A DNA stretch of 64,000 nucleotides from an uncultured bacterium (GTDB taxonomy: Bacteria > Patescibacteriota > Minisyncoccia > Phycocordibacterales > UBA6065): assembly GCA_963841935.1 (NCBI GenBank), contig CAWJEP010000005.1:164003-228002 (forward strand). Reading direction: 5' to 3'. The notes below the pieces were generated by a model. That model did no database searches and was not told the origin of the DNA. It worked only from the letters and a program-made list of their open reading frames with translations. Shown here piece after piece: positions 1,075-60,012 of the stretch. Each line of letters begins with the position of its first letter. The first letter of the stretch is position 1. The position numbers were made by a program, and so were the translations under genes.

Positions 1075-1446
1075 ATGGCTATTCCTATGGCAACAAAGAA
1101 AACAACTAAAACCGCGACAAATCCGAACGAAATTGCCGTCATTATGACGGGAGGAAAGCAATACAAAGTTTCGCAGGGAAGCGTCCTTAAGATTGAAAAA
1201 ATTCTCGGCGACCACAAAGAAGGCGGCAAACTCGTATTTGACGAAGTTCTAATGACGGATGATGGCACAAAGACAACCGTCGGCACGCCGAAAGTCGCCG
1301 GAGCGAAAGTCGAAGGCGTCATAAAAGAAATCGGACGAAATGCCAAAGTCACGGTCATTCACTACAAGAACAAAAGCCGTTATTACAAGAAAGCCGGTCA
1401 CAGACAGCCATTTTTCAAAGTAGAAATCACCAACATCAAAGCATAA
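1075..1446 (+). CDS. rplU: 50S ribosomal protein L21 (bL21)
   Basis: The 'TGGKQYKVSQGSVLKIEKI' motif matches the bL21 family. Start chosen at the ATG at 1075 inside the longer TTG ORF. Confidence 0.85.
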   Translation: MAIPMATKKTTKTATNPNEIAVIMTGGKQYKVSQGSVLKIEKILGDHKEGGKLVFDEVLMTDDGTKTTVGTPKVAGAKVEGVIKEIGRNAKVTVIHYKNKSRYYKKAGHRQPFFKVEITNIKA

Positions 1447-1519
1447 GAAAAGCGGCGGGTATTTTCGAGCGCGTAAGTCGGAGCGAAGCGCACAAGCGAG
1501 AAAATACCCGCCGCTTTTC
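1447..1519. repeat. Palindromic repeat element copy A (19-bp perfect inverted arms flanking the conserved 35-nt core); also serves as the rplU terminator-like hairpin
   Basis: Arms gaaaagcggcgggtatttt / aaaatacccgccgcttttc flank the core cgagcgcgtaagtcggagcgaagcgcacaagcgag. The same core recurs at 8307, 31790, 46992 and (reverse complemented) 49872. Confidence 0.85.
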
Positions 1520-1579
1520 TATGGCGATTTTTGTTATTCACAGGCTATCAACATTGGCGATGGCTTATTAAGGTTTATA

Positions 1580-2851: not shown

Positions 2852-3304
2852 ATGAAGATCTTTATCGGAAGCGACCACGCGGGATTTGAACTTAAGAAAA
2901 CTTTGCTTGAGTATTTAAACGACCTCGGACACGATGTAAGCGACATGGGGGCGAAGAAACTTGACCCTCTCGACGATTATCCGGATTTTATAATTCCGGT
3001 CGCAAAAGAAGTCTCCCACGCGCCAGACAAATTCCGCGGCATCGTCATCGGCGGCTCGGGACAAGGCGAAGCGATGTGCGCCAACAAGGTCTACGGCGTG
3101 CGCGCGGCGGTCTATTACGGAGGGAACTCCGACATCGTGAAGCTATCGCGCGAGCACAATGACGCAAATGTTTTGTCGCTTGGCGCGCGCTTCGTCGGCC
3201 CCGACGAAGCGCGCGCCGCCGTTCGGCTCTGGCTCGATACACCTTTTTCCGGCGACGAGCGACACAAACGGCGAATTTTGAAAATGTATTCGATAAAAAA
3301 ATAA
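2852..3304 (+). CDS. rpiB: Ribose-5-phosphate isomerase B (RpiB/LacAB family)
   Basis: '[15 protein letters not shown]' N-terminus; 150 aa. Confidence 0.85.
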
Positions 3305-5910: not shown

Positions 5911-6533
5911 GGAAGCGGTTCTTGTTTGCGGCCCGAGAGAGCGTCGGAAAGAGTTTCGCGGTCGATGTATTCGATTTCAGCGCCGGTAGAGAGTCCGCGA
6001 CCGAGAACGGAAACTTTTATTTCGTGTTTTTTGACCGACTCGCGGATTGCGTCTTCGATTGTGGCTCGTGTGTTATCGCCTTCGGGATTGAGGCTCGTGG
6101 CGATAATAATTTCTTTCAAATCCTTTCTGTCTTTATTTATGCGAGAAACCAATTCTTTCGTACGAAGCGGGCTTTGTTTTTTTGCGGAGAAAGCCGACGT
6201 GCCGCCGAGAATAAAATACAAACCTTTGTAGAGATTGGTATTTTCGATACTTTCAAAATCCACATCGCGCGGCAAAACCATCAGTAGGGAATGGTCGCGG
6301 CCGCCATCGGCGCAAATGCCGCAGGCATTTGCGCCGCCTTTGGCTTCAAAAAACCGAAAGCACACGGAGCATTGCCTGACATTTTCGTCCATAAACTCTA
6401 TTTCTTTGACGAAATCTTCGCGGAAAGTTTTGTTTTTATGCAAAAGAAAATAAACGAAGCGTTCGGCTTGGCGCGGGCCGATACCGGGAAATTCGCGGAA
6501 TATTTCTTTGAGCTTTTCGAGCGAGTCAGCCAT
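5907..6533 (-). CDS. recR: Recombination protein RecR
   Basis: The C4 zinc finger 'CSVCFRFFEAKGGANACGIC' and a Toprim domain match RecR. Start is the ATG at 6533 (MADSLEK). Confidence 0.85.
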   Translation of the reverse strand: MADSLEKLKEIFREFPGIGPRQAERFVYFLLHKNKTFREDFVKEIEFMDENVRQCSVCFRFFEAKGGANACGICADGGRDHSLLMVLPRDVDFESIENTNLYKGLYFILGGTSAFSAKKQSPLRTKELVSRINKDRKDLKEIIIATSLNPEGDNTRATIEDAIRESVKKHEIKVSVLGRGLSTGAEIEYIDRETLSDALSGRKQEPLP

Positions 6534-7983: not shown

Positions 7984-9384
7984 TTAAGATTTTGCTCTGA
8001 CGGATGAGTCTTTTTCCGAATCCAAGACTTCATAGCCGAGTTTTTCGATTTGAATACGGATTTCGTCGGATTTGGCGAAGTCTTTGGCCGCGCGCGCTTT
8101 AGCGCGCGCGGCGAGAAGCTCCGATATTTCTTTCGGAATTTCCGCTTGAGGCGCGAAAAGTTCCAATCCCAATATTTCGTCGGCTGATTTTATGAAAGCA
8201 AGTTTTTCTTTTGCGTCAGCGTCGCTCTCCAACATATTCCAAACCTCAGCGAGAAGTTTCGGCGTATCTAAATCATCCGCGGCGAAGGAAATCGCCAATG
8301 GCGCGCGCGTAGTCTTAGCGGAGTCCTCGGAGCGCACAAGCGCGCCATTGGCGATTTCCGCAGCCTTCGCCTTTAATCTTTTGAACGCATTCGCCGCATT
8401 GTCGAGAGCTTCGAAACTAAAATTGAGCGGCGCGGAATACCTCGCGGTCAAAAGAAAATATCGGTAGGCGAGAGGAGAGTAGCCTTTTTCGACAAGCGTT
8501 GAAAGCGTCAGGAAATTGCCGGCGGATTTCGCCATTTTTCCGCTGTCGATGGTGACGAATGCGTTGTGGATCCAGTAATGTGCGAATTTTTTTCCCGTGG
8601 CGTGTTCCGATTGGGCGATTTCGTTGTTGTGATGGACGGGAATATGGTCGATGCCTCCGGTGTGAATGTCGAAAGTCTCGCCGAGAAATTTCATCGACAT
8701 CGCCGAACATTCTATGTGCCAGCCCGGGTAGCCGAGGCCGAGAGGACTTTTGAAACCCATATGGCCGTCTTTGGAAAATTTCCACAAGGCGAAATCGCGT
8801 GGATTTTTCTTTCCGCCGTCAGCCATTCGCGTCTGACTTTCGCCCAAAGGCGTCAGTCCGCCGAGCCTGCCGTAATCGGAAATTTTTGAAGTGTCAAAAT
8901 ATATTCCGTCGTCCGCGCGGTAAGTCAGACCTTTTTTATCCAACTCTTTGATAAGTTTTAGGTCGGCTTTTAGATAACGGCTCGCGCGCGGGAACTTCGT
9001 GCCTTTGGTTTCGATATTCAAAAGTTTCAAATCATTTTTGAAAGCCGATTCGTATTTGTCGGCAAGTTTCTTTAGTCCATCGAGCGTCATCGGCAAATTT
9101 TCGCGTTTGAGACCTTTGACCATTTTGTCGTCGCCCGAATCGGCGTCGGACGATAGGTGTCCGATGTCGGTAATGTTTATGACTTGTTTTATTTTGTATC
9201 CCGCCGCTTCAAATGTCCGACGCAAAGTATCGGCAAAGACATACGAACGCAAGTTTCCGATATGAGCGAAATCATAGACGGTTGGGCCGCAGTGATACAT
9301 TCCGACCTTGCCATTTTTTATCGGGACGAAAACATCTTTCTTTCCCGAAAGGGAATTTTCCAGTTTTATTTCCTGATATTTCAT
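7984..9384 (-). CDS. cysS: Cysteinyl-tRNA synthetase (carries an in-frame palindromic-element insertion)
   Basis: HIGH-region 'CGPTVYDFAHIGN' and 'KMAKSAGN' motifs. The ORF runs continuously through the repeat copy at 8291-8356. Confidence 0.9.
   Translation of the reverse strand: MKYQEIKLENSLSGKKDVFVPIKNGKVGMYHCGPTVYDFAHIGNLRSYVFADTLRRTFEAAGYKIKQVINITDIGHLSSDADSGDDKMVKGLKRENLPMTLDGLKKLADKYESAFKNDLKLLNIETKGTKFPRASRYLKADLKLIKELDKKGLTYRADDGIYFDTSKISDYGRLGGLTPLGESQTRMADGGKKNPRDFALWKFSKDGHMGFKSPLGLGYPGWHIECSAMSMKFLGETFDIHTGGIDHIPVHHNNEIAQSEHATGKKFAHYWIHNAFVTIDSGKMAKSAGNFLTLSTLVEKGYSPLAYRYFLLTARYSAPLNFSFEALDNAANAFKRLKAKAAEIANGALVRSEDSAKTTRAPLAISFAADDLDTPKLLAEVWNMLESDADAKEKLAFIKSADEILGLELFAPQAEIPKEISELLAARAKARAAKDFAKSDEIRIQIEKLGYEVLDSEKDSSVRAKS
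8291..8356. repeat. Palindromic repeat element copy B, inserted in frame within cysS (16-bp perfect inverted arms atcgccaatggcgcgc/gcgcgccattggcgat)
   Basis: Core gcgtagtcttagcggagtcctcggagcgcacaagc belongs to the same family as 1466-1500. It translates as ...EIANGALVRSEDSAKTTRAPLAIS... in CysRS. Confidence 0.8.
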
Positions 9385-13155: not shown

Positions 13156-13518
13156 ATGAGATTAACTGAAAGCTTGGAAAAAATCAAGTCTTTGGCGCTG
13201 TTACTCACCAGAAAGGACATTTATGTTGCTCTCATCATAATCCTCGTGGGAATTGCGTCTTTTTGCCTCGGAGCGTTGTGGCAAAAAGACGCGAGCCGTC
13301 CCGATATTACCATTCAAAACGCCGCTTCGGCCGATTTGGCGGCAGGCGAGGAGGGAAGCACTACCGACGCTTATGTCGGCTCTTATACGAGCAAAATCTA
13401 TCGTTTAAAGACCTGTCCGGGAGTCAGCGCGATAAACCCTCAAAACGAGGTCTTTTTCGCGACCAAAGACGACGCCGAGGCGGCCGGATATATAGCGGCC
13501 AAAAACTGCAAGATGTAA
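13156..13518 (+). CDS. Small membrane-anchored protein with a C-terminal Cys-containing motif (Y-R-L-K-T-C-P ... AGYIAAKNC)
   Basis: An N-terminal TM helix and a conserved-looking C-terminal module. The function cannot be assigned from sequence alone. Confidence 0.4.
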   Translation: MRLTESLEKIKSLALLLTRKDIYVALIIILVGIASFCLGALWQKDASRPDITIQNAASADLAAGEEGSTTDAYVGSYTSKIYRLKTCPGVSAINPQNEVFFATKDDAEAAGYIAAKNCKM

Positions 13519-13606: not shown

Positions 13607-13637
13607 GCCAGAGCGAGCCTCTGGTCTTTCTTTTTCT
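13607..13637 (+). terminator. Putative intrinsic terminator hairpin (gccagag-cgagc-ctctgg followed by a U-run)
   Basis: A 6-7 bp GC stem, 5-nt loop and a tctttctttttct tail lie 90 nt downstream of ORF 13156-13518. Confidence 0.4.
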
Positions 13638-18218: not shown

Positions 18219-19139
18219 TTATTCTTTTTGAGCTTCGGCTTGCATCGCGGCGGCGGCCAGTGCTTCCATGTCGGTAAATCTGCCGTCATAGGACGATCCG
18301 AGAACGACAAGGGCCACGGGATGCATGAGACCGGCATCGAGAATAACGGCGAGATTACCTCCGGCAAGGTCGGTATAACCAGTTTTTGAGCCGACAACCG
18401 ACGGAATATAAGGCAGGGCGTCGTCGGTGTTCGTCGCCACGTGGTTCACTAGATTCGAAGACAGGGTGATTTTTTCGTTTGTCGTGGCGGATAGAATCGA
18501 TGGAAAGTTTTTAAGAATATAGCCGACCAAATTCGCCACGTCTTTGGCCGAACCGTAGCCGCCGGAGGTCGTCGTGCTTTCATCCAGGCCGGAAGGATTG
18601 TAAAAATACATGTCGGAAAGGCCGAGCGCCTCCGCGGTATCGTTCATCTCCTGAACAAAAACGCTTTCAGGGTCGCTCGCCGAAGAAGTGGCGATGACAG
18701 AGCCCGCGACGTCGGCAATGGAGTCAATGCCGTCGTTCGACGACACAACTAGGGTAAAAGCCAAAAGATTTTTGAAACTCCAAACTTCTCCGGGGTCGAG
18801 CCCGTCGCTGTCTCCAGTCGTAATCGGAATATTGGTCTCCGGAGGAAGATATTTTTCCGCGACAACGGCGGAAACGAGCTTGGTAATGGACGCGAGCGGC
18901 AAGACTTCTTCGGCATTTTTGTCGAAAAGAATTCTGCCGGTGGATAAATCTAGGGCATAAGCCGCTTTGGCTTCTAGGTTTAAAGAAGCAAAAGGGTCAA
19001 CGAGCGGAGCCGCGCCCGCGGGCGCGGGCGCGGCGACGTAAGTTTTATGTGAAATGGAAATGGCCAAAGCGGCGACCAAAATCGCCAGAGCTGCGAGAGC
19101 TAGCGCTATATGCGCTTTTCTTTTTATCAAAAATTCCAT
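18219..19139 (-). CDS. D-alanyl-D-alanine carboxypeptidase (serine-type, PBP5-like)
   Basis: SxxK 'ASITK', SxN 'SSND' and KTG 'SKTG' motifs. N-terminal signal/anchor. Confidence 0.8.
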   Translation of the reverse strand: MEFLIKRKAHIALALAALAILVAALAISISHKTYVAAPAPAGAAPLVDPFASLNLEAKAAYALDLSTGRILFDKNAEEVLPLASITKLVSAVVAEKYLPPETNIPITTGDSDGLDPGEVWSFKNLLAFTLVVSSNDGIDSIADVAGSVIATSSASDPESVFVQEMNDTAEALGLSDMYFYNPSGLDESTTTSGGYGSAKDVANLVGYILKNFPSILSATTNEKITLSSNLVNHVATNTDDALPYIPSVVGSKTGYTDLAGGNLAVILDAGLMHPVALVVLGSSYDGRFTDMEALAAAAMQAEAQKE

Positions 19140-19678: not shown

Positions 19679-20395
19679 TTATTGTTCGGAAACTGCGACT
19701 TTTTCCGTCTCCATTACAATATCATCAAAATGCCTTTCTTGAACGACGGAAATTATTCCCTGCTTCACGAGCTCGAGCATAGCGAGAAAGCTAATGATGA
19801 CATTGACCTTTCCCTCTTTGTCTTTGGCGAATTCCTTGAAACTCATTTTAAGTCCCGTTGTGATTCGGTTCGTGAGATTGGAAATCATTTCCTCGAGCGA
19901 AATGACTTTGTCCACGACGGCTTTCGGCAAGAATTCTTTTTTCGGCAAATTGGCAAGCACCGCGCCGATACTTTCAAAGAGGTTGGAAAGCGTCATTGAA
20001 TTGTCCGGCGAGAAAACCGGCTCGATTTTCCTTTCTGCCCGGGCGAAAAGAAAATTTTTGCCGAAAATCTTCTGCAAAGCGGCGGCTCGCTCGCGATACA
20101 TTTTGTATAGAGCGAGCCGCCGCTCGAGATCCGCTATATTGCCTTTTTCGTCTTCCGAGAGTTCCAAATTCGGCAAGAGAGATTTCGATTTGATGAGAAG
20201 CAGGGTCGAGGCGATGAGCACGAATTGCGCCGATTCCGAAAGCGGAAAATCCCCCACCGTTCTCACATACGCGACATAATCGTCGGCGACTTTGGAAAGC
20301 GATATGTCGTTTATGAAAAGTTTCCTCTTCTCGATGAGGTCGAGCAAAAGTTCCAGCGGTCCTTCGAATTTCTCGTGTTTCAGCGCAAAAGGCAT
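19679..20395 (-). CDS. scpA: Segregation and condensation protein A
   Basis: 'FEGPLELLLDLIEKRKLFINDISLSKVADDYV' matches ScpA. Confidence 0.85.
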   Translation of the reverse strand: MPFALKHEKFEGPLELLLDLIEKRKLFINDISLSKVADDYVAYVRTVGDFPLSESAQFVLIASTLLLIKSKSLLPNLELSEDEKGNIADLERRLALYKMYRERAAALQKIFGKNFLFARAERKIEPVFSPDNSMTLSNLFESIGAVLANLPKKEFLPKAVVDKVISLEEMISNLTNRITTGLKMSFKEFAKDKEGKVNVIISFLAMLELVKQGIISVVQERHFDDIVMETEKVAVSEQ

Positions 20396-28846: not shown

Positions 28847-29683
28847 TCAATTTTCTTTCTTCGCATCGCGAGAAAGTCGGCGAGGCATTACAATATGGAT
28901 GCGCACAAGCGCGTCGCCGCGGTGACGACCTTGGGGTACGCCACGGCCTCTGATGCGCAGGATTTCGCCGTGAGCGACGCCTTCGGGAACTTTAAGCGAG
29001 ATTGCCCCGTCGAGAGTCTCTAGCGGGTATTCGGCGCCGAGGAGGGCGTCGGAGAGTTTCACTTGGAGGTCGCCGACGATGTTCACGCCTTCTTTATGCC
29101 AGAATTTGTGCGGCTCGATGTGAATGCGCACATATAGGTCGCCCGAGACGCCGCCGTCGATAGGCTCGCCTTGATTCGCGAGCTTGAGCATTTCGCCGTC
29201 GTCGATGCCCGCCGGAATTTTCACTTTCAGATTTTTCTTGTAGTTTATTTCCCGCTCGACGCCAAAGACCGCGTCGTGAAGCGTCACATACAAATCCACC
29301 TGAATGTCGCGGCCGCGCCTCTGGCGCGGCCGCCCGCCTCCGAAAATGCTGCCGAAGAGGTCGTTGAGGTCAAACTCCACTCCGCCTTGGCCGAAGCCGC
29401 CCTGCTGAAAACCGGAGAAATCAAAACCGAAATCGTTAGGATTAAATCCCGCTCCGCCGAATCCGCCGGTGTTGCTACCGGCTGTGCCGAAAGTGTCGTA
29501 TTGCTGGCGTTTTTTGTCGTCGGAAAGGACGCTATACGCCTCGCTGACTTCTTTGAATTTCTCGGCGTTGCCGCCTTTCTTGTCGGGATGGTGTTCGTGG
29601 GCGAGTTTGCGGAACGCCTTTTTGATATCGTCTTGCGACGCGTTTTTCTCCACTCCGAGTGTTTTGTAATAATCTTTTGCCAT
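28847..29683 (-). CDS. DnaJ-class chaperone (J-domain + G/F region + C-terminal domains, no CxxCxGxG zinc finger; CbpA/type II-like)
   Basis: 'DYYKTLGV...HPDK' J-domain with HPD and a Gly/Phe-rich linker. There are no cysteines. It lies downstream of dnaK. Confidence 0.8.
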
Positions 29684-31768: not shown

Positions 31769-31843
31769 CACAGGATGTGCGATATTTTTGAGCGCGTAAG
31801 TCTTAGCGAAGCGCACAAGCGAAAAAATATCGCACATCCTGCG
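31769..31843. repeat. Palindromic repeat element copy C in the grpE-dnaK spacer (arms gcacaggatgtgcgatattttt / aaaaatatcgcacatcctgcg)
   Basis: Core gagcgcgtaagtcttagcgaagcgcacaagcga matches copies A, D and E. Confidence 0.85.
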
Positions 31844-34891: not shown

Positions 34892-35494
34892 TTAACGGCT
34901 ATAAAACTCCAATACGGCTTTGATGTCGAAATGATTGTCTCTCGGCTCGTATTTTGGCGCTCCCATGACCTTCGCGTCCTTTTTCTCCACGTCGTAAGAA
35001 AGCCACGAAGGCACTTTCACCTCTTTCATCTTTTCGGCAAGCGTGGCGAACAGGGGCTTGCCCGCGCTTCCCGGTCGAATGGAAATGATTTCTCCGACGG
35101 CAACGGAATAGGACGGTATGGTAACGCGCCGCGCGCCCACCTTTATGTGACCGTGAGAGACCATCTGGCGCGCGGCGCTTCGGGTCGGCGCGAAGCCGAG
35201 ACGGTAAACGACATTGTCGAGGCGATACTCGAGTTTCTGAAAAAGAAGCTCGATGGAGTTGACGCCTTTTTTGGCCACGGATTCGCGGACATATTTGGAG
35301 AACTGGCGCTCGTTTAATCCGTAAGTAAAACGGGCCTTCTGTTTCTCGAGCATCTGAAGTCCGAAGTCGGACTTCGGACGCCACGCGCCTTTGTCTTTTC
35401 TCTCTTGGCGCAAAGTATATTTGGCCGTTTGAGTTTTCTCAAAAAGCGGAGCGCCGAGGCGGCGAGCGACTTTATACTTGGATTTAATAATCAT
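34892..35494 (-). CDS. rpsD: 30S ribosomal protein S4 (uS4)
   Basis: 'SKYKVARRLGAPLF...ERKDKGAWRPK' matches uS4. Confidence 0.9.
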   Translation of the reverse strand: MIIKSKYKVARRLGAPLFEKTQTAKYTLRQERKDKGAWRPKSDFGLQMLEKQKARFTYGLNERQFSKYVRESVAKKGVNSIELLFQKLEYRLDNVVYRLGFAPTRSAARQMVSHGHIKVGARRVTIPSYSVAVGEIISIRPGSAGKPLFATLAEKMKEVKVPSWLSYDVEKKDAKVMGAPKYEPRDNHFDIKAVLEFYSR

Positions 35495-41104: not shown

Positions 41105-41364
41105 ACGGCTTTTTCCTTTTTTAGAATCTCCGCTTTACTTTTTCCACGCAAACCGTTGTAACCGCCGACTTTCCCGTCGCTTCTGATGACGCGATGGCAA
41201 GGAATATTTTTGTCGGAATTTTTGCTCAAAATCATGCCGACGGAGCGCGCCGCGCCGGACTTACCGGCGCGGCGCGCCACTTCTTTGTACGTCAAAACTT
41301 TTCCTTTTGGAATTAAAGCGACTATTGCCAAAACTTTCTTGGAAAAATCAGAATAACGTTTCAT
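41101..41364 (-). CDS. MGMT-family DNA-binding protein (methylated-DNA-protein-cysteine methyltransferase C-terminal domain only)
   Basis: 'IPCHRVI' active-site motif. The 87-aa protein lacks the N-terminal domain. Confidence 0.75.
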   Translation of the reverse strand: MKRYSDFSKKVLAIVALIPKGKVLTYKEVARRAGKSGAARSVGMILSKNSDKNIPCHRVIRSDGKVGGYNGLRGKSKAEILKKEKAV

Positions 41365-46507: not shown

Positions 46508-49393
46508 CTAGTTTGGAACAATAAAATTTATTATTTTGTTTTTCACGTAAATTATTTTCGACGGTGTTTTTCCGGAGAGCCATTTCTCTAATTCCGACGC
46601 GGCAAAAGCGACTGCTTTTGCCGCGTCTTCGTCGGCATCCGCGGGCACCTCAATCACCGCGCGAACTTTGCCGTTTACTTGTACGGCAATATTTACTTTG
46701 GCGTCTTTGATAAACGCTTCATCCCACTTAGGCCAATCGGAAAGATGTATGGACTTTTTGTTTCCAAGCGAGCGCCATAATTCTTCGCTTATGTGTGGAG
46801 CGAAAGGCGCGAGAAGCTTCAAATAGCTCTCAAAATCGGCGCGAGCTATTGTCGGCACCTTGTCAAAAGCGTTTTGCAAAATCATAAGCGAACTTATCGC
46901 CGTGTTGAAACGCAAATTGGCGATGTCTTCGGTAACTTTCTTGATTGTTTTGTGTAAAAGCGTGTTTGTCGAAGAAAAAACAGCCTCTGGCGAGCGCGTA
47001 GTCTTAGCGGAGTCGGCGGAGCGCACAAGCGAGCCAGAGGCTGTTTTTTCGGAGACTTTCCACACGCGTTCGATGAACCGCCGCGAGCCAATCATACTGT
47101 CGGTGGACCATGCTATGGCTTGATCGAAAGGTCCCATAAACATTTCGTAAACGCGCAAAGTGTCGGCGCCGTATGTCGCGACTATGTCGTCGGGATTTAC
47201 GACATTGCCGAAACGTTTGGACATTTTTCTGCCGTCTTCGCCCATTATGAGTCCGACCGACTGCAATTTTTTAAACGGCTCGATTGTCGAGACAACGCCA
47301 ATGTCGTAAAGAAATTTGTGCCAAAAACGCGCGTATATGAGATGGCGTGTGGCGTGCTCGGCGCCGCCCACATAAAAGTCCACGCTGTTCCAATATTTTT
47401 CTTTTTTCGGAGAAACTAAAACCTTGGAGTCTTTCGGGTCCATATATCGCAAGTAATACCAAGAGCTCCCTGCCCATTGCGGCATCGTATTCGTCTCTCG
47501 TTTCATTCCTTTGAAATTGACCCATTTAGAAATCTCAGCCAAAGGCGACTCCCCCGTTCCCGTCGGTTCGTAATATTTCACTTTCGGCAATACCACCGGC
47601 AAATCTTTTTCCGAGACCGGCACTATTTTATTTCCGTTATGAAGCACCGGGATCGGCTCACCCCAATAGCGCTGCCGTGAGAAAACCCAATCTTTCAATT
47701 TGTATTTCGTCACCCATTTTCCGCCGGCTTTTTCGATGGCGTTCCTATCGGCAAACGGTTCGTCCTTTACGGGCAACTTGAACTTTTCCGCGAACGCCGC
47801 GTCTCTCTCGTCGTGTTTCGGCACTCCCATCACGGCTCCCGTGCCGTAATCGGCAAGGACATAGTCAGCAATCCAGACCGGCACCTCTTCCCCATTCACT
47901 GGATTTACCGCCTTGATTCCTTTCAATTCAACGCCGGTTTTTTCTTTCTTTGCGTCCGTGCGCTCAATTTCCGTTTTGATTCTCGCGGCGGCGACATATT
48001 TCACGACTTCTTTTTCGTTTTTCACTTCATGCAAAAGTTTTTCCACGAGCGGATGCTCCGGAGAAAGCACGACATACGTCACGCCGAAAAGCGTGTCTGG
48101 ACGAGTAGTGAAAACTTTTATTTTTTCCGTTTGATTTTTTATGGCGAAATCGATTTCCGCGCCTTCGCTTCGGCCAATCCAATTTCTCTGCGCCTCTTTT
48201 ATGGATTCCGGCCAATCAAGAAGCGGCTTCACAATATGGCGTGGCGCGCCGTCCATTACCAAATCCCAGCCGAGTTTCGAACCTTCGGCCGTCATTGCGT
48301 CACGAACTTTTTCCTCGGGAAGCCAAGTGACTTCGTGTTTGGCTTGTTCGTCAGCTACGACAGGAGCTTGTTCGCCGTCTTTTAGTTTGAAATAAAAAGA
48401 AGTGAAATGTCCGACGCGGTTTTCGTCTTTCGGCGGATGGAAAAATGTCGAGTGGTATTGACCGGCGCTTCTTTTCACGAGCGTCAGGTTTTTAAATCCC
48501 GTCTCTTCGAATATTTCCGCTCGCGCCGCTTCTTCCGGCGTCTGGCCTTTTTCGATGCCGCCAGTGATAGGAGTCGTCCAATCCACCTTTTTCCATTTGA
48601 GAACTATAAATTTCTTCTCCGACCAGTGTTCGACAAAAGCGCATATGGCGTTTCTCGGAACAAACGGCTTGTCCAATCTCACTTTGCCCGGAACATCGCT
48701 ATTCATATGGGTGATTCCAAATTCGCCATTCGGCAATGTCTCAAAAATGTCGCCGTTTGGCAAAACATTGGTGTCCAAGTCTTTCAAAAGTCTGTCGGCG
48801 TAATCGGTGATTTTCAAAACCCACTGGCGCATCGGTTTCTTCTCGACCGGCGTGCCGCAGCGCTCGCAGCGACCGTCTTCGACGTCTTCGTTCGCGAGGC
48901 CGGTCTTACACGACGGACACCAATTTATCGGCTCGTATGATTCGTAAGCCAAGCCTTTTTCCAAAAGTTTGAGAAAAATCCATTGCGTCCATTTGTAATA
49001 TTTCGGGTCGGTCGTGTTGATTTCCCTACTCCAATCATAATCAAAACCAATGATTTCCAGCTGTTTTTTGTACCTTGCGACATTTTTCGCCACGGCCACG
49101 ACCGGATTGGTCTTGGTCAAAATGGCGTAATTTTCCGCCGGCAAGCCGAAAGCGTCGAAACCCATTGGATGTAAGACGTTGTGCCCCTGCATCCTTTTCA
49201 TTCGGGAGACGATGTCGGTCGCGATGTAGCCCTTCGGATGGCCGACATGAAGACCTTCGCCCGAAGGATACGGAAACATATCGAGAACATAAAACTTGGG
49301 CTTGGGAGAATCATCCTTGGTCGCGTATATTTTCTTTTTCGCCCACCCCTTCTGCCACTTTTTTTCTATTTTCTTATGGTCGTATTGTTTCAT
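46508..49393 (-). CDS. leuS: Leucyl-tRNA synthetase carrying (i) an inserted NUDIX hydrolase domain and (ii) an in-frame palindromic-element insertion
   Basis: 'HVGHPKGY' HIGH motif, 'KMSKRFGN' and editing/anticodon domains. A Nudix box 'GGIEKGQTPEEAARAEIFEETGF' sits between '...LKDLD' and 'WPESIKEAQRNWIGRSEG'. Start is the ATG at 49393. Confidence 0.9.
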   Translation of the reverse strand: MKQYDHKKIEKKWQKGWAKKKIYATKDDSPKPKFYVLDMFPYPSGEGLHVGHPKGYIATDIVSRMKRMQGHNVLHPMGFDAFGLPAENYAILTKTNPVVAVAKNVARYKKQLEIIGFDYDWSREINTTDPKYYKWTQWIFLKLLEKGLAYESYEPINWCPSCKTGLANEDVEDGRCERCGTPVEKKPMRQWVLKITDYADRLLKDLDTNVLPNGDIFETLPNGEFGITHMNSDVPGKVRLDKPFVPRNAICAFVEHWSEKKFIVLKWKKVDWTTPITGGIEKGQTPEEAARAEIFEETGFKNLTLVKRSAGQYHSTFFHPPKDENRVGHFTSFYFKLKDGEQAPVVADEQAKHEVTWLPEEKVRDAMTAEGSKLGWDLVMDGAPRHIVKPLLDWPESIKEAQRNWIGRSEGAEIDFAIKNQTEKIKVFTTRPDTLFGVTYVVLSPEHPLVEKLLHEVKNEKEVVKYVAAARIKTEIERTDAKKEKTGVELKGIKAVNPVNGEEVPVWIADYVLADYGTGAVMGVPKHDERDAAFAEKFKLPVKDEPFADRNAIEKAGGKWVTKYKLKDWVFSRQRYWGEPIPVLHNGNKIVPVSEKDLPVVLPKVKYYEPTGTGESPLAEISKWVNFKGMKRETNTMPQWAGSSWYYLRYMDPKDSKVLVSPKKEKYWNSVDFYVGGAEHATRHLIYARFWHKFLYDIGVVSTIEPFKKLQSVGLIMGEDGRKMSKRFGNVVNPDDIVATYGADTLRVYEMFMGPFDQAIAWSTDSMIGSRRFIERVWKVSEKTASGSLVRSADSAKTTRSPEAVFSSTNTLLHKTIKKVTEDIANLRFNTAISSLMILQNAFDKVPTIARADFESYLKLLAPFAPHISEELWRSLGNKKSIHLSDWPKWDEAFIKDAKVNIAVQVNGKVRAVIEVPADADEDAAKAVAFAASELEKWLSGKTPSKIIYVKNKIINFIVPN
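46974..47050. repeat. Palindromic repeat element copy D inserted in frame within leuS (arms aaaaaacagcctctgg / ccagaggctgtttttt)
   Basis: Core gagcgcgtagtcttagcggagtcggcggagcgcacaagcgag. It is translated as ...KTASGSLVRSADSAKTTRSPEAVFS... in LeuRS. Confidence 0.8.
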
Positions 49394-49823
49394 TTTTAAA
49401 TTTGCGCAGAGCGAGATATATGAGTGCGATGAGAGCAATGCCGAGAATGACGACTCTCATCCAGCCGTAAGCCGACGACCAATATCTGAAAGACGCTATG
49501 ACAAGCGTGAGTATTCCGGAGAACGAAAGCGATGTGGAAACCACGGCATTTGTTTTCAAAAAGAAACTTAGGACGATGAGAATGACTCCGACGGCGACGA
49601 GAGTCATAAAGACTTCCGCCTGATAATTATTTTCCGCGGCGGTGTAATTATTTGAGCAAATGACATCGTTGGATTGCGGCGTAATAACGTCCGTTTGCGG
49701 GCAGAAATCGTTATATTGTGGCTCTTGGTAAATAAGCGAAAGAGAATAATTTATGAACATATTGGCGACGATGACGATGCCAATGATGAGCGACCATTTG
49801 AGAAGTTTTGATTGCTTTTGCAT
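49374..49823 (-). CDS. Hypothetical membrane protein (3-4 TM)
   Basis: Hydrophobic helices. It overlaps the leuS start by about 20 nt. Confidence 0.5.
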   Translation of the reverse strand: MQKQSKLLKWSLIIGIVIVANMFINYSLSLIYQEPQYNDFCPQTDVITPQSNDVICSNNYTAAENNYQAEVFMTLVAVGVILIVLSFFLKTNAVVSTSLSFSGILTLVIASFRYWSSAYGWMRVVILGIALIALIYLALRKFKNETIRP

Positions 49824-49847: not shown

Positions 49848-49932
49848 AAAAATAAAAAACGCACGTATTTTCTCGCTTGTGCGCTTCGCTCCGACTTACG
49901 CGCTCGAAAAATACGTACGTTTTTTATTTTTT
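49848..49932. repeat. Palindromic repeat element copy E (core reverse-complemented relative to copies A-D; arms aaaaacgcacgtatttt / aaaatacgtacgttttt, one mismatch)
   Basis: ctcgcttgtgcgcttcgctccgacttacgcgctcg is the exact reverse complement of the core of copy A. Confidence 0.85.
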
Positions 49933-55259: not shown

Positions 55260-58200
55260 TTAACAATTCCAAATCACTCCGTTTATATCCATAATCGACG
55301 CGGCCGGCATTCCATTGACTGTTTTTATTGAAGTTTTATCGAGATTGTTTATTGTTTTTAGTTCCACGACGCAAACAGATGGGCTGACCGAAGGTGAGAT
55401 ACTCGGTGACGGGCTGACGCTTGGACTGGGAGAAACGCTCGGTGAAATTGACGGTGATGGACTGATTGATGGTGAAGCTGATGGACTTGGAGAAGTGCTC
55501 GGTGAGAGTGACGGTGAAAGTGACGACAAAGGTGACGGTGATATGGATGGCGATATCGATGGAGATTCGGATGGAGAGATAGATGGACTAAGAGACGGCG
55601 AAGGGCTGACGCTCGGTGACAAAGATGGGCTCGGACTGACAGATGGAGATACCGAGGGTGAAAGGCTTGGGCCGATGGACGGCGAAAGTGACGGCGAAAG
55701 TGATGGGCTGATACTCGGCGAGAGACTTGGCGAGAGAGACGGTGATGGAGAAACTGACGGGGAAACTGAAGGACTTAAACTTGGACTAAGAGATGGTGAG
55801 GGCGAAACCGAAGGAGAAATGCTCGGAGAAAGCGATGGTGAAAGTGATGGGCTCGGACTAACTGAAGGTGAAATGCTCGGCGAGAGAGACGGGCTGAGTG
55901 ACGGCGACAAACTCGGCGAAAGTGAAGGACTTGGAGATACGGACGGCGAAACGGACGGAGAAATACTCGGCGAGAGAGATGAACCAGCTGAAGGAGAAAC
56001 CGAGGGAGAGATACTTGGCGAAAGTGACGGACTTGGGGAAACGGACGGCGAAACCGAAGGTGAAATGCTTGGCGAGAGTGATGGGCTTGGCGAAACCGAC
56101 GGCGAAATACTCGGTGAAAGTGAAGGAGAAAGTGACGGAGACAAACTCGGCGAGAGAGACGGCGATGGAGAAACTGACGGACTAACTGAAGGACTTAAAG
56201 ATGGCGAGAGCGAGGGACTTGGTGAAGTCGAAGGTGAAACGCTTGGGCTAAGCGAAGGTGAAAGAGACGGCGAGAGACTCGGCGATAGACTTGGGCTCGG
56301 TGAAACTGAGGGTGAAACCGACGGAGAAATACTTGGCGAGAGTGAAGGGCTTGGACTAACCGATGGTGAAATACTTGGTGAAAGAGATGGAGACAAACTT
56401 GGCGAGAGACTCGGCGAAATGCTCGGGCTCGGTGAGACCGAAGGGCTGACTGATGGTGAGATGCTCGGTGAGAGTGATGGCGAAGGTGAAACCGATGGTG
56501 AGATCGATGGTGAGAGAGATGGACTAAGTGATGGAGAAAGTGATGGCGATATCGAAGGGCTTGGACTGACTGATGGTGAGACCGAAGGACTCAAACTCGG
56601 TGACAGAGACGGTGATGGCGAAACCGACGGCGAAATACTCGGTGAAAGTGAAGGAGAAAGTGACGGAGACAAACTTGGCGAGAGAGACGGCGATGGAGAA
56701 ACTGACGGACTAACTGAAGGACTTAAAGATGGCGAGAGCGAGGGACTTGGTGAAGTCGAAGGTGAAACGCTTGGGCTAAGCGAAGGTGAAAGAGACGGCG
56801 AGAGACTCGGCGATAGACTTGGGCTCGGTGAAACTGAGGGTGAAACCGACGGAGAAATACTTGGCGAGAGTGAAGGGCTTGGACTAACCGATGGTGAAAT
56901 ACTTGGTGAAAGAGATGGAGACAAACTTGGCGAGAGACTCGGCGAAATGCTCGGGCTCGGTGAGACCGAAGGGCTGACTGATGGTGAGATGCTCGGTGAG
57001 AGTGATGGCGAAGGTGAAACCGATGGTGAGATCGATGGTGAGAGAGATGGACTAAGTGATGGAGAAAGTGATGGCGATATCGAAGGGCTTGGACTGACTG
57101 ATGGTGAGACCGAAGGACTCAAACTCGGTGACAGAGACGGTGATGGCGAAACCGACGGCGAAATACTCGGTGAAAGTGAAGGAGAAAGTGACGGAGACAA
57201 ACTTGGCGAGAGAGACGGCGATGGAGAAACTGACGGACTAACTGAAGGACTTAAAGATGGCGAGAGCGAGGGACTTGGTGAAGTCGAAGGTGAAACGCTT
57301 GGGCTAAGCGAAGGTGAAAGAGACGGCGAGAGACTCGGCGATAGACTTGGGCTCGGTGAAACTGAGGGTGAAACCGACGGAGAAATACTTGGCGAGAGTG
57401 AAGGGCTTGGACTAACCGATGGTGAAATACTTGGTGAAAGAGATGGAGACAAACTTGGCGAGAGACTCGGCGAAATGCTCGGGCTCGGTGAGACCGAAGG
57501 GCTGACTGATGGTGAGATGCTCGGTGAGAGTGATGGCGAAGGTGAAACCGATGGTGAGATCGATGGTGAGAGAGATGGACTAAGTGATGGAGAAAGTGAT
57601 GGCGATATCGAAGGGCTTGGACTGACTGATGGTGAGACCGAAGGACTCAAACTCGGTGACAGAGACGGTGATGGCGAAACCGACGGCGAAATACTCGGTG
57701 AAAGTGAAGGAGAAAGTGACGGAGACAAACTTGGCGAGAGAGACGGCGATGGAGAAACTGACGGACTAACTGAAGGACTTAAAGATGGCGAGAGCGAGGG
57801 ACTTGGTGAAGTCGAAGGTGAAACGCTTGGGCTAAGCGAAGGTGAAAGAGACGGCGAGAGACTCGGCGATAGACTTGGGCTCGGTGAAACTGAGGGTGAA
57901 ACCGACGGAGAAATACTTGGCGAGAGTGAAGGGCTTGGACTAACCGATGGTGAAATACTTGGTGAAAGAGATGGAGACAAACTTGGCGAGAGACTCGGCG
58001 AAATGCTCGGGCTCGGTGAGACCGAAGGGCTGACTGATGGTGAGATGCTCGGTGAGAGTGATGGCGAAGGTGAAACCGATGGTGAGATCGATGGTGAGAG
58101 AGATGGACTAAGTGATGGAGAAAGTGATGGCGATATCGAAGGGCTTGGACTGACTGATGGTGAGACCGAAGGACTCAAACTCGGTGACAGAGACGGTGAT

Positions 58201-60012
58201 GGCGAAACCGACGGCGAAATACTCGGTGAAAGTGAAGGAGAAAGTGACGGAGACAAACTTGGCGAGAGAGACGGCGATGGAGAAACTGACGGACTAACTG
58301 AAGGACTTAAAGATGGCGAGAGCGAGGGACTTGGTGAAGTCGAAGGTGAAACGCTTGGGCTAAGCGAAGGTGAAAGAGACGGCGAGAGACTCGGCGAAAT
58401 GCTCGGGCTCGGTGAGACCGAAGGGCTGACTGATGGTGAGATGCTCGGTGAGAGTGATGGCGAAGGTGAAACCGATGGTGAGATCGATGGTGAGAGAGAT
58501 GGACTAAGTGATGGAGAAAGTGATGGCGATATCGAAGGGCTTGGACTGACTGATGGTGAGACCGAAGGACTCAAACTCGGTGACAGAGACGGTGATGGCG
58601 AAACCGACGGCGAAATACTCGGTGAAAGTGAAGGAGAAAGTGACGGAGACAAACTCGGCGAGAGAGACGGCGATGGAGAAACTGACGGACTAACTGAAGG
58701 ACTTAAAGATGGCGAGAGACTCGGCGATAGACTTGGGCTCGGTGAAACTGACGGACTGACTGAAGGACTTAAAGATGGCGAGAGCGAGGGACTTGGTGAA
58801 GTCGAAGGTGAAATGCTCGGCGAGAGAGAGGGCTGAAAGTGACGGCGAGAGACTCGGCGATAGACTTGGGCTCGGTGAAACTGAGGGTGAAACCGACGGA
58901 GAAATACTTGGCGAGAGTGAAGGGCTTGGACTAACCGATGGTGAAATACTTGGTGAAAGAGATGGAGACAAACTTGGCGAGAGACTCGGCGAAATGCTCG
59001 GGCTCGGTGAGACCGAAGGGCTGACTGATGGTGAGATGCTCGGTGAGAGTGATGGCGAAGGTGAAACCGATGGTGAGATCGATGGTGAGAGAGATGGACT
59101 AAGTGATGGAGAAAGTGATGGCGATATCGAAGGGCTTGGACTGACTGATGGTGAGACCGAAGGACTCAAACTCGGTGACAGAGACGGTGATGGCGAAACC
59201 GACGGCGAAATACTCGGTGAAAGTGAAGGAGAAAGTGACGGAGACAAACTCGGTGAAAGACTCGGCGAAAGACTTGGACTTGGAGATACGGAGGGTGAAA
59301 TGGACGGAGAAAGAGATGGAGAAATACTCGGACTAAGCGATGGACTAAGTGACGAAATAAACCATGTGATTTGAATGACTCCGTTTCCTCCCTGTCCTCC
59401 TGTGTTACCGTTTCTTCCCGACCCTCCACCACCGCCTCCATAGTTTGCTCCGTTAGCGCCAGTTGCGTTTACTCCTCCAGCTCCTCCGTTTCCGGCTGGA
59501 GTTCCCCCATTTGCTCCACCAGCGTGAGTTCCCGACCCATTCGCTCCGGTTCCTCCGTTTCCAGTGTTCCCGGCTCCTCCACCTCCTCCACCTCCGTTGT
59601 TGCTACCTCCGTTTCCTCCGTTTCCTCCGTTGTGTGACGTCCAAGTGACGACTCCGTTACCGGTTGTGTTGCTATTACCCCCGACTCCACGTGCGCCACC
59701 GGCGTTGCCTCCACCACCTCCACCGGCCGCCTCGATGATAAGAGTGTTGCCCGCAGTATTGAAAAATGTGGTTCCGCCAGCGCCGCCGGATGCGTTTGCG
59801 GTTCGTGTTCCGCCGTTTCCGGCGGAATAATTAAAAGCGATGTTCGGACCAGATATGGTTATAGTTGTCTGAGCCCAAGCGCCACCACCACCACCACTAC
59901 CGTTGTTGCCTCCACCACCTCCACCTCCACCTCCAATAACCTGAACAACCGCGGAAGTTGCTGTGGTGCTATTCCATGTACCGCTACCTGTAAGATTTGA
60001 TGTTGTCGCCAT
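55260..60012 (-). CDS. Giant (about 1580 aa) protein: Gly/Asn-rich N-terminal domain followed by more than 1100 aa of (S-P-S-L/I/V)n low-complexity repeat. Interrupted by one frameshift at about 58836-58850.
   Basis: ORF 58690-60012 starts with a non-repetitive Gly-rich domain and runs in frame into SPSx repeats. ORF 55260-58652 continues the same repeat. The repeat consensus gains +1 nt at about 58845. All neighbours are minus-strand. The plus-strand alternative (acidic GExxGE repeat, ORF 55315-58836) cannot be excluded. Confidence 0.55.
55400..59340. repeat. Tandem-repeat DNA: 12-nt (4-codon) units organised into 528-bp higher-order repeats (at least 4 near-identical copies at 56101-58212, plus partial copies)
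   Basis: 'accgaaggactcaaactcggtgacagagacggtgatggcgaaaccgacggcgaaatactc' recurs at 56581, 57109, 57637, 58165 (period 528) and again at 58561 (period 396). Confidence 0.9.

Follow-up and report, generated by a model that had tools for sequence, protein, structure and literature searches.

We found that a 64,000-nt stretch of DNA from an uncultured bacterium of the Patescibacteria (contig CAWJEP010000005.1, positions 164,003 to 228,002; hereafter, the window) carries five copies of a palindromic module in which a nearly invariant core forms the tip of a hairpin, the stem of which is mostly locus-specific and perfectly or almost perfectly paired. The module looks like an interspersed palindromic selfish repeat that is undescribed in the searched literature, and it may well spread in a way that is new. 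The functionally closest known system is the Rickettsia palindromic elements (RPEs), but the conservation pattern is the reverse of that of RPEs, transposable elements of the miniature inverted-repeat type (MITEs) and repetitive extragenic palindromes (REPs). The reading to which we give about an even chance is that of a selfish, RPE-like module residing at palindrome tips, where template switching keeps the arms perfect and flips the core, and we infer its spread to other loci.

The five copies had been noted in a first-pass annotation made from the letters of the window, and all of them were read directly and mapped, each with a near-identical core, to the following positions:

Copy A, 1446..1520, plus strand: arms 1446-1466 and 1500-1520, 21 bp, 100% complementary; 33-nt core at 1467-1499.
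Copy B, 8287..8359, plus strand: arms 8287-8306 and 8340-8359, 20 bp, 100% complementary; 41-nt core at 8303-8343.
Copy C, 31771..31841, plus strand: arms 31771-31789 and 31823-31841, 19 bp, 100% complementary; 33-nt core at 31790-31822, TT variant.
Copy D, 46974..47050, plus strand: arms 46974-46991 and 47033-47050, 18 bp, 100% complementary; 41-nt core at 46992-47032.
Copy E, 49848..49931, minus strand: arms 49848-49871 and 49908-49931, 24 bp, one mismatch; inverted 33-nt core at 49873-49905.

Copies A, C and E have the 33-nt core and copies B and D the 41-nt core, which carries a 9-nt internal duplication, as the first-pass annotation had claimed. Its description of the arms as perfect inverted repeats in each copy held for copies A to D (18-21 bp) and failed for copy E, with one mismatch in 24 bp. 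Copy A is intergenic and lies directly 3' of the rplU stop codon, with arms made up of an A-run, a GC stem and TATTTTC on one side and GAAAATA, a GC stem and a T-run on the other. Copy C is located upstream of dnaK and downstream of grpE and a 95-aa open reading frame (ORF), all on the minus strand, and copy E is bounded by a DUF378 gene on one side and, on the other, by a 157-aa ORF that lies upstream of leuS. Copies B and D were confirmed to lie in frame inside essential genes. Copy B is found in cysS, encoding CysRS (ORF 7984-9384, minus strand), between the catalytic and C-terminal domains, and encodes EIANGALVRSEDSAKTTRAPLAIS; both ends of its core are altered to GCGC, which lengthens the stem. 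Copy D is found in leuS, encoding LeuRS (ORF 46508-49438, minus strand), just ahead of the anticodon-binding domain, and encodes EKTASGSLVRSADSAKTTRSPEAVFS. On the minus strand both are read in the same frame, as G[AS]LVRS[EA]DSAKTTR[AS]P, and each is situated between Pfam domain matches. The core 12-mer AGCGCACAAGCG, with at most one mismatch, matched six times in the window against 0.34 expected, and none of 100 shuffles reached six; the five copies account for all of these matches but one, a chance match at 28900. A looser two-anchor Hamming scan of the window detected no degenerate extra copies.

The core is asymmetric and almost invariant, and three length classes were distinguished:

33-nt core: GAGCGCGTAAGTC[GG/TT]AGCGAAGCGCACAAGCGA, mostly intergenic.
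32-nt core: the 33-nt form minus one A (GTAGTC), mostly coding.
41-nt core: the 32-nt form plus the 9-nt unit GAGTCNNCG, coding.

The core is readable as successive GCG-N(1-4)-AG(C/T) units, namely GCGTA(A)GT, GCGAAGC (GCGGAGC in some copies) and GCGCACAAGC, to which the long form adds a GCGGAGT unit. Whole elements are 66-90 bp long with arms of 16-30 bp, and the full hairpins fold with z-scores of -5.7 to -8.4. A typical intergenic copy consists of an A-run, a GC stem, TATTTTY, the core, RAAAATA, a GC stem and a T-run, and the 33-nt class is flanked by TA on both sides. The arms had been described as completely different between copies, which overstated their divergence. The outer 10-25 bp of each arm are locus-specific, but the inner 5-8 bp are conserved in each subfamily: the 8 bp beside the core are RTATTTTY / RAAAATAY in the 33-nt class, and (C)TGGC / GCCA(G) is found in the 32- and 41-nt classes. 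Coding-type arms additionally have a weak motif in common, with a G at every third base and GAA at positions -15 to -13 in 16-17 of 20 different gene sites.

Pairing of the arms was evaluated in a gap-free alignment of 41 copies of the 33-nt class. Standard pairs made up 93.9% of the arm cells, against 57.7% in shuffles, and double-sided changes were detected at 19 of the 20 pairs (304 cells, against 80 in shuffles). The covariation score of this class was 0.948, compared with 0.22 in shuffles and 0.18-0.26 in controls in which the partner was slid, and three to four pair types occurred at nearly every arm position. Over all classes the mean arm measured 19 bp, and the arms were perfect in 44 of 83 copies.

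The expectation of a multi-copy family was borne out by pattern searches beyond the window. When one genome per species was scanned for the exact pattern, a single metagenome-assembled genome (MAG), labelled Candidatus Saccharibacteria, yielded at least 14 copies; pattern matches in other phyla lacked the upstream half of the core and were discarded as chance matches. A stricter pattern identified at least 80 loci in JGI metagenomes, the sources including peat and rhizosphere contigs, and after removal of duplicates at least 81-83 distinct copies of the same architecture were retained. The core pattern had 0 matches in IMG/VR viral contigs, and BLAST of a 47-nt unit against plasmids and phages gave no match. 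Rfam reported nothing in the window at the gathering threshold, the element itself hitting generic miRNA-type hairpin models far below threshold, and no description of the module was found in the searchable literature, in keeping with the first-pass annotation, which did not recognize it as a described family. A census of the encoded peptide gave 0 matches in a representative library, and a word-index search gave 837 candidates, 3 of them with E <= 10; this census indicates a narrow family and is otherwise uninformative. As judged from these searches, the family is confined to a narrow lineage of Patescibacteria, also known as the Candidate Phyla Radiation (CPR). The closest named CysRS homologs are from Parcubacteria/Paceibacteria, at 55-60% identity, and on this basis the host was assigned to the Patescibacteria and to no finer group.

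A sequencing or assembly artefact, for example adapter or hairpin-ligation chimeras, might be suspected, as perfect inverted repeats round a constant sequence resemble hairpin-adapter read-through and many contigs end at or near a copy. However, the same loci were recovered in independent NCBI, ENA and JGI assemblies (the last from several samples), long frames stay open across the copies, orthologs differ by compensatory changes, and contig ends at copies are what a repeat would cause. This explanation was rejected and is effectively refuted.

About half of all copies (n=42) are coding, and their reading frames stay open, in agreement with the proposed RPE-like in-frame insertion in genes. 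Besides CysRS and LeuRS, the host genes encode DNA polymerase I (polA), topoisomerase I (topA), RNase R, TsaD, G6PD, MurB, ParB, GatC, RsmE, alanine racemase, ComEC, methyltransferases and secreted proteins, and one ORF contains two copies. The copies sit in inter-domain parts of the housekeeping proteins. The dominant frames read ERVVGAKRTSE or ERVVGAESAERTSE one way and SLVRFA[KP]TTRS or SLVRSADSA[KP]TTRS the other way, with a minority of other frames; the predicted element-encoded peptides are ERVVGAKRTSE, SLVRFA[KP]TTRS and SLVRSADSAKTTRS. Relative to the gene strand, the core is sense in 21 coding copies and antisense in 21, which indicates no bias, and intergenic copies downstream of a gene are split 7:9.

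We investigated orthologous sites in related loci, which are designated below by L and a number. Among cysS orthologs of 79-86% identity, the element is present at the same place in all. The L099/L100 lineage has a short core in the opposite orientation, and this core and the opposite-orientation long core of L102 have a derived G-to-A change in common, evidence that favors an inversion at the site over separate insertions. Left-arm differences between the window and L099 have their mirror image in the right arm, and in the window and in L103 the stem has been extended into the ends of the core by different compensatory changes. The leuS site behaves likewise: the short core of L106 is inverted, and the core of L007 has decayed. 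Opposite orientations or different core classes between orthologs were found at seven more gene or terminator sites; sites with such changes include polA, tsaD, parB, G6PD, a methyltransferase and a terminator with 96-97% identical flanks. Thus, the core flips and gains or loses the 9-nt unit in place, and a change in one arm is accompanied by a change in the other. An inverted repeat maintained by template switching, as defined in PMC8604942, is characterized by arms that pair perfectly, by compensatory multi-nucleotide changes between orthologs and by an inverted spacer, all of which were found here.

Conservation of the core was also evaluated in orthologous pairs. The flanks were 63-88% identical, and the arms had from 0 to 20 of 20 positions identical. 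Cores that were found via protein orthology, and therefore free of pattern bias, had 0-2 differences in 7 of 8 cases. The core is far better conserved than the flanks and is therefore constrained or homogenized as a nucleotide sequence, whichever its orientation and in every frame. The decayed leuS core of L007 (L007:6692-6774) reads TAAGCGTGTAGTCTTAGCCCGCTCCGACGGGCGCACAAGCGA, and its middle is now a small palindrome of its own, GCCCG...CGGGC.

We examined sites at which the module is absent. In distant cysS orthologs without the element the region is only ~3 residues shorter, and the empty leuS ortholog is ~12-15 residues shorter. In 2.2 kb of the contig of this leuS ortholog, the only palindrome with a stem of at least 7 bp lies in the 51-nt segment that matches the site of copy D. 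At the site of copy E, L107 contains a plain terminator, AAAAAGCGCCGC-GGCAC-gta-GTGCC-GCGGCGCTTT; L007, a MAG, contains AAAAAAAGCGCCGC-AGAAAG-TATTTTTT-core-AAAAAATA-CTTTCT-GCGGCGCTTTTT, with the same outer stem as L107 plus the module; and the window has the module with unrelated arms. The difference between L107, which is empty, and L007, which is filled, indicates that a hairpin can exist with or without the module, and provides the presence/absence polymorphism that had been sought at an orthologous site. The proposal that the intergenic copies sit where terminators are expected is likewise borne out, in that a relative has a canonical terminator at the site orthologous to copy E. The A-run, GC stem and T-run of an intrinsic terminator are found in intergenic copies only, including A, E and many metagenome copies; the terminator-type short loop of ~3-8 nt is replaced by a loop of 33-41 nt, and a consensus terminator scan called none of copies A to E. 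That the module lives in hairpin tips, as the first-pass annotation had suggested, received two direct supports, from the L107/L007 terminator and the palindrome at the empty leuS site; its picture of the arms as simply unrelated targets did not hold, as they evolve in place with compensatory changes. Active targeting of loops by the core is one possibility; alternatively, the hairpins may move as wholes, or those without a core may be what deletions left behind.

Palindromes without the core were also detected in the window. Perfect hairpins with a stem of at least 11 bp numbered 15, against 1.07 in codon-block shuffles (maximum 4), and ~10 of the 15 are coreless and lie mostly in coding DNA:

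46596..46627, no strand assigned: coreless palindrome with 14-bp arms and a 4-nt loop, in the C-terminal coding region of leuS.
8087..8112, no strand assigned: coreless palindrome with 12-bp arms, in cysS, encoding AARAKARAA.
3182..3217, no strand assigned: coreless palindrome with 17-bp arms and a 2-nt loop, inside rpiB.
6308-6336, 13255-13292, 19009-19034, 20078-20124, 29309-29333, 35126-35178 and 41245-41277: other coreless perfect hairpins.

The leuS palindrome is perfect in three lineages (the window, L107 and L106/L007), with different co-varying arms, and absent from the more distant L105; the length of the protein is unchanged with or without it. The cysS palindrome is perfect in L103 and L099 via compensatory synonymous changes and absent from L101 and L104. 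In ~560 kb of related loci we found 156 distinct perfect hairpins with a stem of at least 12 bp, 66 of them with an exactly matching core and a few more with a variant core. These sequence comparisons suggest that a general force maintains palindromes in these genomes. In-place core flips and changes of length class, the generality of coreless palindromes and the strand-biased arm mismatches described below are features beyond the first-pass account.

Two of the hairpins in the window had been considered as relatives of the module. The loop of the 13255-13292 palindrome was rejected as a core remnant, as the common sequence, TCGGAGCG, was judged too short. The hairpin at 13608-13624, which had been put forward as an empty relative of copy D, has only 6-7 bases in common with it, in opposite polarity; the segment 13607-13625, in which GCCAGAG-CGAGC-CTCTGGT precedes a T-rich tail, is a hairpin of the ordinary terminator-like sort. 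Another loop module of the same architecture, unrelated to the first and not found in the window, was observed in the related loci at L038:1399-1475, L041:6616-6696, L064:11953-12021 and L034 (minus, near 126). It has perfect locus-specific stems of 14-17 bp and a conserved 35-49 nt loop with CGAGAAyTGTCyGAG ... GAkTTTTCGAG.

Mismatches within the arms were asymmetric between the strands. Among 1595 arm pairs there were 54 mismatches; read on the core-sense strand, these include 33 of the G·T or T·G kind but only 3 of the A·C or C·A kind, whereas equal numbers are expected by symmetry. The ratio of G·T to A·C was 15:2 in intergenic copies, 10:0 in coding-sense copies and 8:1 in coding-antisense copies, and many independent loci contributed. 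The bias is independent of the direction of transcription, indicating that the pairing strand is the core-sense strand, whether or not this is the mRNA, and it points to a hairpin of single-stranded DNA (ssDNA) rather than a transcript. This result bears on the possibility that the module is a structured RNA, either a small RNA or a hairpin at a terminator or 3' end whose conserved loop binds a protein, with the coding copies being accidental. The intergenic copies, 3' of genes with an A-run, a GC stem and a T-run, do resemble bidirectional terminators, the z-scores of the full hairpins are strongly negative, and G·U-compatible mismatches dominate. However, orientation is random with respect to the upstream gene in intergenic copies and to the gene in coding copies, the wobble-compatible strand is not the mRNA in antisense coding copies, and the core alone is not structured beyond shuffles. 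Furthermore, no Rfam model matched save generic sub-threshold hairpins, and wobble pairs make up ~2% of the arm pairs, which is unusual for RNA stems. We consider a structured RNA element very improbable.

The units of the core match the mini-hairpin motifs of ssDNA, GCGNAGC and GCGNNAGC, and the opposite strand is without them. Such mini-hairpins are extraordinarily stable and nuclease-resistant in ssDNA, a fragment with mini-hairpin sequences bound single-stranded DNA-binding protein (SSB) poorly, and the motifs are known in the phage G4 origin, ssiA and the N4 hairpin promoters (PMC13037366). The module could be a host-useful ssDNA signal kept by selection, such as a priming or replication-restart site (ssi-like) or a site for a DNA-handling protein, for instance in ssDNA uptake. 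Conservation of the core far beyond the flanks in both orientations and all frames would agree with such a signal, as would a mismatch bias that is strand-specific and independent of transcription and the GCGAAGC- and GCGGAGC-type mini-hairpins of the systems just cited. Yet a signal of this kind has no reason to sit in essential proteins and replace native residues. No orientation bias was detected relative to genes or to local GC skew (26 to 38, no association), although the skew is weak and the power of the test low; the module is absent at an orthologous site, one copy has decayed, and the distribution is very narrow. A host signal is improbable in our judgement. The coding locations, the random orientation and the antisense result make both this role and that of an RNA or terminator less likely.

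Another explanation is a classical non-autonomous transposon of the MITE or RPE type, in which the whole hairpin is moved by an enzyme encoded elsewhere and the arms then diverge in place; one candidate for the enzyme is a single-strand-specific HUH/Y1 transposase, of the IS200/IS605 or RAYT type, that works on the core-sense strand once this has folded. The inner repeats conserved within each subfamily, the arm motif common to 20 unrelated gene sites and the TA on both sides of the 33-nt class are consistent with this explanation, and the one-strand G·T bias is expected of a folded ssDNA substrate. Recognition by an enzyme would also lead to conservation of the core across lineages. On the other side, there is no consistent target-site duplication: 51 of 79 copies have no abutting direct repeat, and only one repeat exceeds 3 bp, although repeats of 2-3 bp are in slight excess (18, against ~8 expected, in the 79 copies). 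The outer arms are almost wholly different between copies while the core is identical, and the same outer stem occurs with and without the module. A Pfam scan found no transposase-like, recombinase or reverse transcriptase gene among 22 scanned ORFs of the window, and no candidate autonomous element was found beside any copy in the ~560 kb of related loci, where the examined neighbors are housekeeping genes. We regard a transposon of this type as less likely than the favored reading, but a trans-acting single-strand transposase is a serious rival, as the inspection covered the window and the fetched loci.

Template switching between the arms of an inverted repeat is known to homogenize and lengthen the arms and to invert the spacer, without selection and within coding DNA (PMC8604942, PMC13100816, PMC8794818), and perfect coding palindromes are known in the mitochondria of Nematomorpha (PMC6649704). 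Such template switching accounts for the perfect, co-varying and locus-specific arms, the partly overwritten native protein sequence, the orientation flips and the coreless palindromes. In the favored reading, that of a selfish module at palindrome tips, homogenization of the arms, their growth over neighboring sequence and inversion of the spacer would result from intramolecular template switching during replication (quasipalindrome correction). The hairpin would form mainly on the core-sense strand, which is the only strand able to fold the mini-hairpins, and on this strand G·T wobbles would escape correction and A·C mismatches would be removed. The module might reach new hairpin tips via a single-stranded intermediate, without a transposase of its own; the most economical route of spread would be copy-choice between hairpin tips, with the inner repeats serving as microhomology. 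Intergenic copies would be tolerated, and perhaps used, as bidirectional terminators. In its strongest form, this proposal describes a transposase-free element whose mini-hairpin core forces its own strand to fold back, so that template switching builds and preserves a perfect palindrome made from adjacent host sequence, flips the core and now and then copies it to other tips, with parts of essential proteins being rewritten in the process; we consider this full version unlikely.

Several observations weigh against the favored reading. Template switching leaves the presence of one conserved spacer at dozens of loci unexplained, and concerted evolution alone cannot keep the core identical between lineages; the drive or constraint invoked here is hypothetical. 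The approximately 20-bp motif of the coding arms is harder to reconcile with arms of purely local origin than with a preference for certain targets or with arms that travel together with the core. The addition of ~3 residues in cysS and of ~12-15 residues in leuS cannot both be reconciled with a simple dropping of the core into a loop, and the L107/L007 difference is either a gain or a loss of the module. No insertion event between near-identical strains was found by BLAST for empty sites with the same arms, the fetched loci having been chosen for carrying the core. Conservation of the core ends in the metagenome set follows in part from the search pattern. A trans-acting enzyme may be encoded outside the window and the ~0.5 Mb of related loci that were inspected. 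Finally, the core alone, folded with ViennaRNA as RNA or DNA and on either strand, had no special stability compared with shuffles. Standard energy models miss the stability of mini-hairpins, and the mini-hairpin argument rests on the published experiments and not on predicted folds.

We compared the module with known systems. Like RPEs, it is a short palindromic repeat in a reduced genome, found in frame in variable or inter-domain regions of housekeeping proteins as well as between genes, with no known transposase and no clear target-site duplication. RPEs are ~100-150 bp long and conserved along their whole length. The module, in contrast, is 66-90 bp long and conserved only in its 32-41 nt center and 5-8 bp on each side, its stem is locus-specific and perfectly paired, and its host lineage is Patescibacteria; it is set apart from RPEs by these descriptions. 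To our knowledge, neither orientation flips at orthologous sites nor a strand-biased wobble signature has been described for RPEs. MITEs, REPs and bacterial interspersed mosaic elements (BIMEs) are likewise interspersed repeats of small size that form hairpins, are non-coding and often lie 3' of genes, and REPs are thought to act as single-stranded hairpins recognized by a Y1 transposase. However, in MITEs and REPs it is the ends or stems that are conserved, whereas the middle is variable or short; this is reversed here. Unlike in MITEs, the outermost part of the arm is locus-specific, the terminal inverted repeats are not conserved and there is no target-site duplication, and, unlike the extragenic REPs and BIMEs, about half of the copies lie inside ORFs. 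The stem of REPs is conserved and bears a GTAG or CGTC tetranucleotide at the foot (PMC3733652), whereas in the module the stems vary and GTAG or GTAAG lies inside the loop core.

The palindromes attributed to template switching, including those in coding DNA (PMC8604942, PMC8794818, PMC13100816, PMC6649704), resemble the module in their perfect coding inverted repeats with both arms translated, in the homogenization and expansion of the arms, in the inversion of the spacer and in compensatory multi-nucleotide changes that need no selection. They are unrelated to one another and local, and none has one conserved spacer at dozens of loci. The mini-hairpin signals of ssDNA (phage G4 origin, ssiA and N4 virion RNA polymerase promoters; PMC13037366) also place GCGAAGC or GCGGAGC on a larger hairpin with one active strand, but they are present in one or few copies at phage or plasmid origins of replication or transcription, whereas the module is chromosomal, multi-copy and partly coding. 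Mobile palindromes of organelles (Volvox mtDNA, PMC2670323; double-hairpin elements) are short selfish palindromes in compact genomes as well, but their sequences and hosts are unrelated and they are conserved as whole palindromes.

With this module, an RPE-like selfish repeat lying in frame would be described for the first time in the CPR. Genomes as small as ~1 Mb would withstand having essential proteins, among them aminoacyl-tRNA synthetases, DNA polymerase I and topoisomerase I, rewritten repeatedly, and more than 80 loci offer a natural system in which homogenization by template switching, growth of the arms and inversion of the spacer can be followed from lineage to lineage. Should the mini-hairpin core indeed promote fold-back of one strand, it would represent a route by which DNA spreads without a transposase. 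Peptide polymorphisms of 11-14 residues (ERVVGAKRTSE versus SLVRFAPTTRS) could pass for adaptive change, and breakage of metagenome assemblies at the copies is a practical concern.

In a large share of the metagenome and MAG contigs, a copy is found no more than ~200 bases from a contig end, examples being L003:199-221, L004:200-222, L024:8-39, L048:21-52, L062:9-40, L076:14-44 and L098:4471-4502, and the element appears to break short-read assemblies. Near-identical, inverted rplU-downstream copies are found at both ends of the 2.9-kb contig L039 (L039:44-75 and L039:2586-2617), representing either a real inverted duplication or a fold-back assembly. At the rplU-downstream locus of L089 (L089:85-116), the left arm is of one type and the right arm of another, and only 9 bp pair; this allele has the look of a product of recombination between strain alleles that crossed over within the conserved core.

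Other features of the window were also recorded. A scan for tRNA and tmRNA genes found none. Two ORFs of more than 1100 codons, at 55260-58652 (minus) and 55315-58836 (plus), overlap almost fully on opposite strands, and neither has a Pfam match. The LeuRS product of the window (46508-49438, minus strand) has a NUDIX domain (Pfam E = 7.4e-12) inserted at residues 286-382, before the editing domain. The NUDIX Pfam family was also detected in a homolog (P0201), and in the related contig L107 leuS is called as two ORFs.

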